Below the pieces are notes generated by a model. It was not told where the DNA came from and ran no database searches. It saw only the letters and a program-made list of their open reading frames with translations. The position numbers and the translations under genes are program-made. Positions 33,644 to 41,842 of a stretch of 64,000 nucleotides of DNA are shown one piece after another (the stretch's first letter is position 1; every line of letters starts with the position of its first letter). The DNA comes from a virus. Lineage: Duplodnaviria; Caudoviricetes. Location of the stretch: IMG/VR virus record IMGVR_UViG_2671180233_000001, positions 21,041 to 85,040 of that record; one strand, given 5' to 3'.

Positions 33644-33904
33644 ATGATCCGGACAAAAGTATTAGGTGAAGCGGCAGGAATTCAGTGGTCAGGCTTACAG
33701 GATCGGACTGAAACAAATAGCGTGACAGGCTTAGGTGCACCATTAATTGTCGGTCAATTCCGCCGTGGTCGTATCGATAAGCCAATAACAATTACAAACG
33801 GCAATATTAAGGCCGAGCTAGGCTATGACCCGACCAACAAAGACTATATCGCCGTGCAATCTATGCTTGATACCGGAGTGCCTAGTGTGCAGGTGTTACG
33901 GATT
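33644..33904 (+). repeat. 261-bp direct repeat, copy 1 (copy 2 at 36828-37088)
   Basis: Near-identical DNA, mostly synonymous differences; 2 amino-acid changes in 87. Confidence 0.95.
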
Positions 33905-33919
33905 GGAAACCACAATTAG
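33644..33919 (+). CDS. Stand-alone tail sheath N-terminal module
   Basis: LG.A.GI....D...LIVGQFRRG..KP..IT..N....LG...VLRI resembles the N-terminus of P1-type sheath proteins. Confidence 0.65.
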   Translation: MIRTKVLGEAAGIQWSGLQDRTETNSVTGLGAPLIVGQFRRGRIDKPITITNGNIKAELGYDPTNKDYIAVQSMLDTGVPSVQVLRIGNHN

Positions 33920-33921
33920 TT

Positions 33922-39800: not shown

Positions 39801-40598
39801 GATCAGTGGAACAGATTTGTTCCACATATGATTCAATATCAAGAAACTGACCCTGATAACTGGAATATGATTCCACAGGTTCCTGAGTTTAATATTCCTA
39901 CTGATTTAGAGGGTTGGGATATTCAATATCTGGATATGATAGAGAATAAAATTATCAGAGTTAGTTTTGAAAATGGGGTTATTCCAGCAGGCTATCTGGC
40001 TGGTAACTCTATTTTGATAGATAACCTCATCATCAATAGCACAATTGTTACTATTATGCCTGCTGCATTTGCTGGGCATGGTGAAATCAAGAAAGTTAAA
40101 TTCTTGGGTAATAATCTATTAAATATCGGTAGTAGCGCATTTGCTGCTGCCATAAGAATTCGGAATTTAGATATACCTTCTAGTGTAGAGAGAATTGGTT
40201 CAGGTGCTTTCGCTGGTATGAGTTTCCTTGAGACAGCGAGTATTTCATTGTCAGGCTATGTTTCGTTGGATACTTCGGTCTTTAGTGGATGGCCATCTTC
40301 CATTGAGACCCCTGAAAATGTATTACCTGATTCGCCTGTATTCACAACACTGACCGCTACAATCATTGAAGGTACGGCAACTTATGGTGATACAGCCTAC
40401 ATAGAAAGAGAAGGGGCAATAATAGGTAGTGCACTAGTATCTGAAGACGGCAGTTTTATCATTGATCTAACTCAAACTGAGGTAGAGGAAGGCGAAGATA
40501 CCCCAATATTAATTGAGGGTGATATTGTTGATATTTACATTCGTGATATTGTCAGCAATAAATCTAAAGAAGTCACAGTTAATGTTGAATTGAATTAG
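36828..40598 (+). CDS. Sheath N-terminal module fused to BspA-type leucine-rich repeats and a C-terminal Ig-like domain
   Basis: First 87 aa nearly identical to 33644-33919; many IPSSVEYIGxxAF / IxxxAF repeats; C-term GTATYGDT...DGSF.I.L. Confidence 0.85.
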   Translation: MIRTKVLGEAAGIQWSGLQDRTETNSVTGLGAPLIVGQFRRGRIDKPMTITNSNIKAELGYDPTNKDYIAVQSMLDTGVPSVQVLRISDLWDVQYTLISTGEVIRIYHAGNIPANAYRGRKATVVELSAEEQAELTEDELEQYLWEMSFPIIDDRKDLIINKSVRHIGEWAFANWQNVGTVTLLSGGMVDEYAFVNMDGVIDISVDNVNTLGKSAFGAVTAINVTITNTLMIDEGAFGGSTIENLSIGKDSLIKTIVGIRAFSGSKIMNLKIKSSVDTLKSDSFSATGIGSISIDEGLRVIEGQTKIIISDTQFSILGGAFAGVSKLNENWEKVSTTNQEYDPVTEQWIRTFNYFDLTIPSSVEYIGVSAFPYSPIGNLKIIGNEKLILDVSCFAAGNFKSIVILQVDRIEHDAFGAAHNYLESFVIGHANVVDGAQFASGNGWVVNSIFDINVDDLSGNALPKAHNSLKHLRIKTKGSIKGGTVNYLRGLESLVIEAEGVIEPGGILMTRSDTATITAKGIENGGIESLITRMVDYPNLDARGWSGNSAKCWGTVELNVDYIGDGGCVNSSFYEINLNPNNPDKKDKLISIGNGAFIYGGVFKGIDWEVDTVGSGAFITASMGNTRLKVNESIGNAAFLGTYYMGDSLSISAPTLPERCIAMFNGGNLSSDKLDIIISAETIENQSYVWRSFSKTILDTVEIKDGAFIVQNFRNGLEFSNRLEYIGKGAFNTAYIYQPDGNFNIPKSTRKIDEAAFVTCNFYKENNDGQPIEIVIDGTQLEIENSAFVSSNPPVGSKVKIIADVKRVASHAFCNMYGITEFDLGEGWETIEPTTFAGIQNVSKWHIPANVKVIKSGAFQNNTGMTELTFDKGVEIIEAAFLAAGPDQGPNKLGIRQVIFPDSLKEFSASFEASALETVVLPRSLEKFYWGAYTSVGEIYSTMYSLAPSTLDTLFLRDGVKPTLMTIDVASISIKPNVLIYVTDIKQYYQDDQWNRFVPHMIQYQETDPDNWNMIPQVPEFNIPTDLEGWDIQYLDMIENKIIRVSFENGVIPAGYLAGNSILIDNLIINSTIVTIMPAAFAGHGEIKKVKFLGNNLLNIGSSAFAAAIRIRNLDIPSSVERIGSGAFAGMSFLETASISLSGYVSLDTSVFSGWPSSIETPENVLPDSPVFTTLTATIIEGTATYGDTAYIEREGAIIGSALVSEDGSFIIDLTQTEVEEGEDTPILIEGDIVDIYIRDIVSNKSKEVTVNVELN

Positions 40599-41842
40599 TG
40601 GGAATAATCATGACTACTAATTTAAATACTGATCTTGAAAATGATCATATTCTTCATGAACTGGCTCTCATTATCCCGGCACATAATGAAGAAAATGATT
40701 TACCAAAAACATTGCAATCAATATCAAAACAAACAGTAAAGCCGGGTTTAGTTGTGGTGGTTGCTGATAATTGTTCTGACCGAACAGTTGAGATAGCAAA
40801 GGCTTTTAATGTTACAGTTGTTGAAACTATTGACAACAAACATAAAAAAGCAGGAGCCTTAAACTATGGTTGGAATATGGTTAACGATTATGAATATGTT
40901 GCAACGTTAGATGCAGATACGATTTTAGAGGAAGAAGATTTTATTGAGAAATTACTAGCCCAATTAAAATCAGATCCTAATGTTGCCGGAATCATGCCAC
41001 GATATACTGTCCAACACAGCAATCTACTTGAGAGAATGCAAATGTTAGAGTTTGCATCTACAACACTTGAGTTACTTCGTCGAGGATGTCATACCCATAC
41101 TTTAGGAGGTCAATTTTCTTTATTCAGAAATGAGATCTTAAAAGAGATTAAACTCTCTTATGGTGTATGGTCACATGACTCTGTTGTTGAAGATATGGAG
41201 TTAACTGTGCGTTTATGGAAGCGTGGTTATCGCTGTGCCGTGTCTAGTGATACAAGGGCAGCTGCAGGAGGGATGTTTACATTAATGGGACTATGGTCTC
41301 AACGACGTAAATGGGAGGAAGGTATATTACGGATTCTGTTTGAAAATAAAATAGAGAAGTTCTTATACTTACCTTATCTTCGAACTGTGTCTTCTGTTTT
41401 TGATCTATGGATGCGGTTTATTCTATTATCAATGTGTTTTGTTAATTTTAATTATATTTGGTTATGGCTAATTACAATCATAACTTCAATTGATTATAAA
41501 GCTATTTATAAAGCACCTGATATTGAAAACCGTTGGAAGAATATGTTGTTGAGTACATGCTTTTTTGAGTTTTATACTTTTCATATTCTGTGTGTTAAGT
41601 TAGTTTCTTTATTTAGAATCATTGAGAGAAAGACTGATGATTTATGGAAGAAGCAACACATTGCCGAGAAGAGTAAATCAAAATCGCTACCAGTAGCATA
41701 TTGTGTTCTGGTTCTACTTCTCATGTTGGTTTTTGCAAGCGTTATCACGATACCAGCGCTTATTTTACAGGTTAGCGTTGTTGTACTGGTCATTCGTTTT
41801 ATATATCGTTTAACCAGATCTGATAGCGGTTACATGCCATAA
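40598..41842 (+). CDS. Processive GT2 glycosyltransferase (PgaC/IcaA/HAS-like) with C-terminal TM helices
   Basis: IIPAHNEE, DNCSD, LDADT, VEDMEL and QRRKW motifs. Confidence 0.9.
   Translation: MGIIMTTNLNTDLENDHILHELALIIPAHNEENDLPKTLQSISKQTVKPGLVVVVADNCSDRTVEIAKAFNVTVVETIDNKHKKAGALNYGWNMVNDYEYVATLDADTILEEEDFIEKLLAQLKSDPNVAGIMPRYTVQHSNLLERMQMLEFASTTLELLRRGCHTHTLGGQFSLFRNEILKEIKLSYGVWSHDSVVEDMELTVRLWKRGYRCAVSSDTRAAAGGMFTLMGLWSQRRKWEEGILRILFENKIEKFLYLPYLRTVSSVFDLWMRFILLSMCFVNFNYIWLWLITIITSIDYKAIYKAPDIENRWKNMLLSTCFFEFYTFHILCVKLVSLFRIIERKTDDLWKKQHIAEKSKSKSLPVAYCVLVLLLMLVFASVITIPALILQVSVVVLVIRFIYRLTRSDSGYMP

Follow-up and report, generated by a model that had tools for sequence, protein, structure and literature searches.

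A 64,000-nucleotide stretch of viral DNA (Duplodnaviria; Caudoviricetes; positions 21,041 to 85,040 of the IMG/VR record IMGVR_UViG_2671180233_000001, here termed the window) is, to judge from its gene content, a P1-like myovirus prophage with named relatives from Acinetobacter, and it harbors two genes that begin with the same small module: an open reading frame (ORF) of 91 amino acids at positions 33644-33919, and an ORF of 1256 amino acids at positions 36828-40598 that continues from the module into a long series of leucine-rich repeats (LRRs). Profile and fold comparisons indicate that the contractile sheath of this phage is split into two polypeptides, a body of 435 residues and an N-terminal module ('N-module') of approximately 88 residues, and the best reading of the duplication and the split taken together would be that the longer protein co-assembles into the sheath and displays its LRR region outward on the tail. 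The probability of that reading is placed at roughly 0.6. An earlier note on this DNA, which was prepared from the sequence alone, had described the duplicated module and proposed the display of an adhesin along the tail, but overlooked the division of the sheath as a whole, on which the present reading turns. The genes and motifs concerned are the following.

23639..24946, plus strand: sheath body, 435 residues (phrog_1036 'tail sheath', positions 100-530 of 531, E 1.1e-89)
33570..33575, plus strand: TGGAAC late-promoter-like motif, 74 nt before the stand-alone module gene (positional enrichment)
33644..33919, plus strand: stand-alone sheath N-module, 91 residues, predicted to comprise the handshake arm and the first segment of domain II (PHROGs; residues 3-88 of the fused relative P0085)
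36759..36764, plus strand: TGGAAC late-promoter-like motif, 69 nt before the fusion gene (positional enrichment)
36828..37088, plus strand: N-module of the fusion protein, codons 1-87 (85 of 87 residues identical to the stand-alone copy)
37089..40598, plus strand: cargo of approximately 1170 residues, consisting of a linker region of some 70 residues, blocks of BspA-type LRR_5 repeats, and a C-terminal region of about 120 residues without a confident model (Pfam, AlphaFold2)
40598..41842, plus strand: membrane family 2 glycosyltransferase (GT2) of the processive-synthase type, with a likely start at ATG 40610 (Pfam Glycos_transf_2, Glyco_trans_2_3)

The two copies of the module differ across their first 87 codons at residues 48 (I/M) and 53 (G/S) only, while a BLASTP alignment of the shorter ORF with the start of the longer one returned 85 identities over 89 positions. 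At the level of DNA, the similarity extends from exactly the ATG to the end of codon 87, with unrelated flanking sequences both upstream and downstream; the first 60 and the last 45 nucleotides of the repeat are identical between the copies. The 261 nucleotides contain 17 base differences, of which 15 are synonymous and two nonsynonymous (corresponding to a synonymous rate, dS, of 0.288, a nonsynonymous rate, dN, of 0.010, and a dN/dS ratio of 0.035), a pattern that points to strong purifying selection on both copies. The value of dS further indicates that the duplication is old, since about a quarter of the silent sites have changed while the protein has remained nearly unchanged in both copies. 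The duplication claimed in the earlier note, with its largely silent divergence, was thus borne out, and the dN/dS comparison that it had suggested yielded the ratio given above. A six-frame search of the whole 3.79-Mb assembly found exactly two copies of the module. Contigs from two other studies cross the junction between module and cargo at 95-99% identity, and the fusion is therefore not an assembly artefact, and circulates.

Comparison with the PHROGs profiles placed the 91-residue protein on the first approximately 88 positions of three families without an assigned function (phrog_14345, phrog_5283 and phrog_24956, with profile lengths of 332, 516 and 279, respectively); weaker matches, to positions 6-64 of phrog_1036 (‘tail sheath’), were obtained for that protein and for the beginning of the fusion alike. 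The 91-residue protein matched no family in Pfam. The gene at 23639-24946, which encodes the sole sheath body in the genome, lacks the first 100 or so positions of the same tail sheath profile. Because the body covers phrog_1036 from position 100 onward and the module covers its start, the module corresponds to the missing N-terminus of the sheath. The genes for module and body are found on the same strand, 8.7 kb apart and with other genes between them, so that the protomer is not a single polypeptide in this phage; a programmed frameshift that would re-fuse the two pieces was considered, and was ruled out here by that distance. A search with the body returned 113 homologues, mostly 423-462 residues in length and many of them named Acinetobacter, among which were four fused forms of 544-657 residues that are 36-39% identical to the body described here. 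A library-wide search with the module returned 296 hits at E<=0.001, and among the best 150 of these module-bearing proteins, three have a body following the module.

One fused relative (P0085) is tiled by the two pieces, with the module on its residues 3-88 and the body on its residues 111-544. Its AlphaFold2 model is of generally high confidence (mean predicted local distance difference test score, pLDDT, 87.4; predicted template modelling score 0.78), falling to low confidence only at residues 1-27, which form a free arm, and at residues 91-103, a linker with pLDDT <50; the split falls within the gap between the tiled pieces. Since a search of the PDB with the sequence of the fused sheath gave a chance match only (E 0.077), a fold search was used instead, and the best structural match was the sheath protein of phage P1, gp22 (PDB 9ay3, 8jan, 8jaj), which has the same domain order. 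The similarity is extensive (Foldseek E 6e-23, with template modelling scores of 0.68-0.70; VIA Z 33.9 over 461 residues, placing model residues 31-544 on chain residues 35-529), and residues 31-90 of the model align with gp22 from its residue 35 onward.

In the published description of gp22 (PMC10304247), residues 3-34 are assigned to an N-terminus that pairs with the C-terminus of a neighboring subunit (a ‘handshake’), residues 35-99 and 243-425 to domain II, and residues 100-242 to a domain that ‘extends outside the sheath’. By that correspondence, the module is predicted to consist of the handshake arm and the first strip of domain II, and to end where the chain exits to the outward domain, while domain I, the C-terminal arm, the outward domain (domain III) and the second portion of domain II would all fall to the body. 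Because the C-terminus of the module lies at that exit, a cargo attached to it would point away from the tube. The gp22 protein itself is one chain of 529 residues according to the same paper (PMC10304247), whereas here the first 88 or so residues are separate and exist in two versions, one of them carrying a cargo of 1170 residues. The label ‘sheath N-module’ applied by the earlier note is thus upheld by the PHROGs matches, by the tiling of P0085, and by the fold match of that fused relative to gp22.

That a split sheath is functional is established by Acinetobacter phage vB_AbaM_ABMM1, the only GenBank phage found to carry the module, in which a gene for a sheath body of 431 residues is followed, after one intervening gene, by a gene for a 92-residue ‘tail sheath protein’. 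The investigators who described that phage list two sheath proteins, and document both relaxed and contracted tails of approximately 118 nm by transmission electron microscopy (PMC10345192). Among 200 other genomes of the genus, the module was found in 18, the body (always as a single gene) in 17, and both in 16; of the three exceptions, two contain a module for which no body was detected at E<=1e-20, and the third is a genome of 88% completeness whose body lies at the end of a contig. This co-occurrence argues for an obligate partnership between module and body. In three relatives (L015 2704-3030, L024 2280-2600, L018 16400-15990), the bare module stops about 8 nt before the ATG of the body and in a different frame, an arrangement that looks like fission in place, and in those phages a low-level frameshift product may be made.

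The relatives also demonstrate that the module is joined to a wide assortment of sequences. Module-bearing proteins range from 94 to 762 residues in length, and the match lies nearly always at residues 1 to approximately 90. When those first 90 residues were removed and cargos of at least 40 residues were kept, the resulting 127 cargos fell into 60 unrelated BLAST groups, the largest of which has 42 members. A Pfam census of the 150 module proteins identified LRR_5 in four, DUF285 in three, LRR_8 in two, Gp18_domIII_N in two and DUF3383 in one, and an inspection of ten long cargos from IMG/VR identified LRR_5 in one, DUF285 in two, Laminin_G_3 in one, NCTSP_N together with a TIM barrel in one, a sub-threshold match to PD40 in one, and nothing in the remaining four. 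The occurrence of other cargos on this module in related prophages, which the earlier note had proposed to look for, was therefore confirmed, and extends to LRR_5, DUF285, LRR_8, Laminin_G_3 and N4-type receptor-binding domains. The last of these was found in an IMG/VR contig (L067 10688-12829), where the sheath N-module is joined to the N-terminal domain and TIM barrel of an N4-type receptor-binding protein; N4-like phages have a receptor-binding ‘non-contractile tail sheath protein’, to which the NCTSP domains are assigned (PMC9230969), and the protein in this contig thus appears, by its domain matches, to combine a myovirus sheath subunit with a podovirus receptor-binding protein that was grafted onto it. 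The cargo group encountered most often (42 of 127) begins with a domain, without a match in Pfam, that is bracketed by the conserved cysteine motifs …ISCxGAT… and …FCL…; it occupies the first 120 or so residues after the module (as seen in L035, L041, L049, L051, L045, L060 and L063), and may be a default outer domain onto which others are added.

Genomes usually contain two to four module genes of differing length (one to four across the related prophages overall), and a frequent layout places a bare copy of 92-108 residues beside the body and a cargo-bearing copy some 20 kb away. Four genomes (G138, G046, G013 and G092) have a body and cargo-bearing modules only, which implies that a protein of this kind must be competent to act as small subunit. 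The amino acid identity between modules has a median of 89.5% within a genome (45 pairs) versus 58% between genomes (2100 pairs), although these pairs are not independent, since some IMG/VR contigs duplicate genomes of the genus. Such likeness within a genome, like the low dN relative to dS of the two copies in the window, favors small subunits that share the same partner.

Within this family, the locus in the window is set apart by the size and type of its cargo. The match of that cargo to Pfam LRR_5 is unambiguous (186.4 bits against a cut-off of 27.7, E 2.3e-55, in six stretches), in agreement with the BspA-type repeats reported in the earlier note. The same cannot be said of the ‘Ig-like end’ that it described: the C-terminus of the fusion scored 20.3 bits against Pfam Big_6, under the cut-off of 27.6; a search of the PDB with the sequence of the last 130 residues returned nothing meaningful; and an atlas search with the last 137 residues gave scores of 0.83 or less, which serve as a lead only. 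The AlphaFold2 model of the cargo (mean pLDDT 59.5, computed from a 30-row alignment of distant repeat proteins) is confident in the LRR blocks only, and its last 117 or so residues have pLDDT <50. The fusion contains neither a signal peptide nor a membrane segment (its highest 19-residue hydropathy is 1.69, and its N-terminus is the module), and the cargo displays a weak match to the NCBIfam family adhesin_HupY (60.7 bits against a cut-off of 1250). The LRR cargo is regarded, from these family relationships, as a putative adhesin that would bind a ligand on a host or bacterial surface.

Both module genes are preceded by the motif TGGAAC, which is strongly enriched at a characteristic distance from genes: at 18 of the 33 plus-strand sites in the window a gene starts 40-110 nt further on, where 1.9 would be expected (P 1.6e-14). 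The motif (often TTGGAACC) is found 47-97 nt before 18 plus-strand gene starts, examples being the sites at 4093, 9381, 13807, 20067, 31476, 41850 and 44342, and it is probably the late promoter element of the phage; it resembles the -35 box of sigma factors of the extracytoplasmic function type. The 8-mer AATGGAAC alone is not enriched (three found versus 3.65 expected), and a scan of positions 32000-44500 for sigma-70 promoters and terminators returned no more sites than did shuffled sequences, and none in the two intergenic regions. The ‘own late-type promoter’ that had been ascribed to the fusion gene therefore holds as a motif 69 nt before its ATG, rather than as a mapped promoter.

From these observations, the following assembly scheme is proposed. 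The 435-residue body would contribute the outward domain and the tube-facing domain I, together with most of domain II and with the C-terminal arm. The N-module of approximately 88 residues would add the first strip of domain II and the N-terminal arm, which pairs with the C-terminal arm of a neighbor in the handshake that holds the sheath together. Two interchangeable N-modules, one bare at 91 residues and the other extended into some 1170 residues of BspA-type LRRs, would both be transcribed from late-type promoters, and each body subunit would pair with either of the small subunits, as encountered, and thereby complete both fold and handshake. The resulting tail would be a co-polymer, some protomers of which would bear an outward LRR solenoid; its likely role would be the weak, multivalent binding of a cell-surface or matrix ligand, helping the phage to find or hold its host. 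The broader proposition, that throughout a whole lineage of temperate Acinetobacter myoviruses the two-piece sheath serves as a built-in display scaffold, in which a constant body is combined with alternative binding or enzymatic small subunits, up to a few hundred exchangeable copies of which would coat the contractile tail (here with a 1170-residue LRR adhesin), is advanced more tentatively, its chances being judged slightly less than even.

Several points weigh against co-assembly with outward display. The fold evidence comes by way of a fused relative, with 36% identity in the body and 51% in the module, and not from the chains of this phage itself. The cargo has no close homologue in the protein database, where its best matches are generic LRR proteins of 20-25% identity. 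A cargo of 139 kDa on many protomers might hinder contraction or assembly, and its occupancy could be very low or confined to particular rings. The high similarity of modules within a genome may reflect in part recent duplication or gene conversion, rather than selection, and the Shine-Dalgarno regions of both module genes are weak.

The possibility that the fusion is a virion protein at special positions only, with its N-module docking at one end of the sheath (in the ring that adjoins the baseplate or the terminator) in the manner of a collar, whisker or side fibre and without decoration of the entire tail, is compatible with the bulk of a 1170-residue cargo and with the placement of module-cargo genes in several relatives between a tail protein and the spike, among the baseplate genes; moreover, in P1 the handshake sheets of the last ring are reported also to bind the arms of the terminator (PMC10304247), so that contacts of the arm type do occur at the ends. 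That arrangement is nevertheless judged unlikely, because a module that is identical to the bare copy at 85 of 87 residues cannot itself direct the protein to a special ring, leaving only the sterics of the cargo to do so, and because relatives with cargo-bearing modules only must fill every ring with them. A non-structural role, either as a decoy that poisons the sheath assembly of competing related phages or as a cell-associated adhesin moron with a leftover module, would account for the setting of the gene: a tube-like gene (here 36124-36756) is followed directly by a DarA-like gene (here 41923-44337) in 13 of 13 related loci, but in the window the two are separated by 5.1 kb made up of the LRR fusion and the GT2 gene, and such an insertion, about 5 kb long, carrying a membrane GT2 and interrupting a gene pair that is contiguous in every relative examined, has the usual look of accessory cargo. 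Against such a role, and rendering it distinctly improbable, stand the strong purifying selection that holds the module to the copy of its own phage (dN/dS 0.035), the late-type motif before the fusion gene, the absence from the protein of a signal peptide or membrane segment, and the recurrence of the module-cargo architecture with many cargos in many prophages. Finally, the 1256-residue gene forms a singleton cluster in the protein database and differs in position from the module genes of relatives, as might a non-functional by-product of recombination between a module gene and an LRR gene; a frame that is intact over 1256 codons, a module part with 15 silent versus two replacement changes, and the near-identical copies, junction included, in contigs from two further studies leave very little room for that explanation.

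The adjoining GT2 gene raises an additional alternative, which does not exclude co-assembly: that the GT2 works together with the LRR fusion as a single functional unit, in which a glycan made by the GT2 late in infection is the ligand or the covering of the displayed LRRs. GT2 enzymes of the processive class are marked by the catalytic motifs D,D,D and Q(R/Q)xRW, accompanied by membrane segments. The protein encoded here has DAD at residue 105, QRRKW at residue 235, and C-terminal hydrophobic stretches at residues 264-295 and 360-406, as do polymer synthases. The stop codon of the LRR gene occupies 40596-40598, the GT2 frame opens at GTG 40598, and an ATG follows at 40610, placing the start 0-11 nt after that stop; TGGAAC is not found at the usual distance before the GT2 gene, the nearest upstream site lying some 800 nt away inside the LRR gene, and co-transcription is therefore likely. 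The LRR/GT2 junction is also bridged by one contig from another sample. Each of these features would favor a joint function. However, a GT2 counterpart was found neither in the 13 related loci nor in 80 IMG/VR loci that contain the module; another module-LRR fusion (L045) exists without a GT2; and no export or partner genes adjoin the GT2 gene. Elsewhere in the 200 genomes of the genus, the best GT2 matches are at most 31-32% identical and by appearance represent a host paralogue, and the nearest protein in the database shows 41% identity across 65% of the query. A search of viral contigs with the GT2 alone found no relative, and a search with an alignment of its homologues found 26 loci, with 33% identity or less over long matches; in the seven of these viral loci that were inspected, by a crude count of LRR motifs on adjoining ORFs without a Pfam scan, none had an LRR-like neighbor. 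Among the NCBIfam families PgaC_IcaA came closest, with a score of 99.6 bits that lies far under its equivalog cut-off of 422.3.

A joint function of GT2 and LRRs is accordingly considered quite unlikely, and the GT2 is read instead as probable accessory cargo, acquired either along with the fusion or beside it; in the co-assembly scheme it would be a co-transcribed membrane glycan synthase, acquired with the LRR cargo, with no evidence of joint action between the two. The coupling to a GT2 gene that was described in the earlier note stands with respect to probable co-transcription, given the gap of 0-11 nt, whereas the functional link is weak, as no relative has the GT2; its further tie to a phage-made glycan found no support in the comparison of related loci or in the neighborhoods of viral GT2 relatives.

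When set against systems described previously, the locus is classed, on the strength of its gene and domain comparisons, as a putative P1-type contractile sheath, split in a manner similar to that of a type VI secretion system (T6SS), with exchangeable decorated subunits. To our knowledge, phage contractile sheaths have been treated as homopolymers of one chain, and the only well-known two-chain sheath is that of the T6SS. The protomer of that sheath likewise consists of a small and a large chain (TssB/TssC, also termed VipA/VipB), and VipA bearing a C-terminal green fluorescent protein still forms working sheaths, a precedent for the placement of cargo on the small chain. The T6SS has one TssB per system, and is not known to have paralogues that carry swapped cargos. 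The 91-residue protein is not a member of the TssB/VipA family by sequence (it has no Pfam match), and the likeness is one of architecture only; furthermore, the T6SS is a cell-anchored machine, whereas the system described here belongs to a virion. The small chain of the T6SS sheath is described as providing the N-terminal linker of the mesh, and the large chain its C-terminal linker (PMC5813253).

Extra domains located away from the tube in single-chain phage sheaths have been proposed by Evseev et al. 2022 to act in adhesion or stability (PMC9230969). Each such domain forms an insertion within a single chain and recurs unchanged on all protomers, whereas the outer domain described here is found on a separate, exchangeable subunit; the text of the same paper contains neither ‘split’ nor ‘two genes’ (PMC9230969). 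The contractile injection systems known as antifeeding prophages and Photorhabdus virulence cassettes contain several sheath protein species in one sheath, as stated in the P1 study (PMC10304247), but as full-length paralogues rather than as alternative small subunits on a common body. The cargo shares its six LRR_5 stretches with the BspA-type LRR adhesins (Pfam LRR_5; NCBIfam HupY/LrrG), from which it differs in having neither signal peptide nor cell-wall anchor and in being joined to a virion module instead; similarly, the GT2 shares its fold, its DAD and QRRKW motifs, and its membrane segments with the PgaC/IcaA-type synthases, but lies in a phage late operon without pgaABD-like partners nearby. 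The literature searched offered no account of a phage sheath in two pieces, or of small sheath subunits that exist in alternative versions, in agreement with the statement of the earlier note that this is not a described system.

If the proposed reading is correct, the two-chain sheath would have had an independent second origin, and the tail itself would be a long, multivalent adhesion organ in this prophage. Phages would have a new route to surface-binding functions, in which specificity could be swapped via one small gene while the contraction machinery is left untouched, and a natural and already optimised attachment site for large proteins on a phage tail would be available for phage display and for engineered tailocins. 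The existence of a cultured relative (ABMM1) and of inducible prophages makes these ideas directly testable. For annotators, the analysis would serve as a warning that ORFs of approximately 90 residues labeled ‘hypothetical’ or ‘tail sheath’ in these prophages, as well as the N-termini of large LRR proteins, are parts of the sheath.

The surroundings of the sheath genes include a set of P1-type genes identified by Pfam and PHROGs (encoding DarA, Hdf-like and DdrB-like proteins): an Hdf-like gene at 26769-27317, a gene with DarA_N and LPD3 domains at 41923-44337, and a ddrB-ParB gene at 44414-45838, each preceded by a TGGAAC site. The trio corresponds to P1-style, head-packaged anti-restriction proteins, and is consistent with a P1-like sheath. 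A nucleotide search of GenBank phages with positions 28000-47000 of the window found no match. In one contig from another sample (X3), position 39965 is joined back to position 36474 with 39 unrelated letters between them, which suggests that in this variant either the genes are arranged differently or a second gene of LRR type adjoins the tube-like gene; contigs from a further sequencing run (X4) have coverage limited to the spike and portal part.

Bare and extended forms of a structural module are also encountered elsewhere in the window. A second pair of genes (21980-22546 and 22550-23458) encodes proteins of 188 and 302 residues that both match the 95-position profile phrog_5216, through residues 131-181 of the former and residues 3-75 of the latter; ABMM1 has a 95-residue stand-alone form of the phrog_5216 type at the same place, and the pair may represent another small structural module with and without an extension. 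The spike protein encoded here (33922-34437, 171 residues) has a gpV Apex motif, and its counterpart in ABMM1 is no more than the initial 135 or so residues of a 3451-residue protein (L003, OQ471969.1, positions 16609-26964), and the spike in this lineage thus seems likewise to exist both as a bare form and as a giant fusion.

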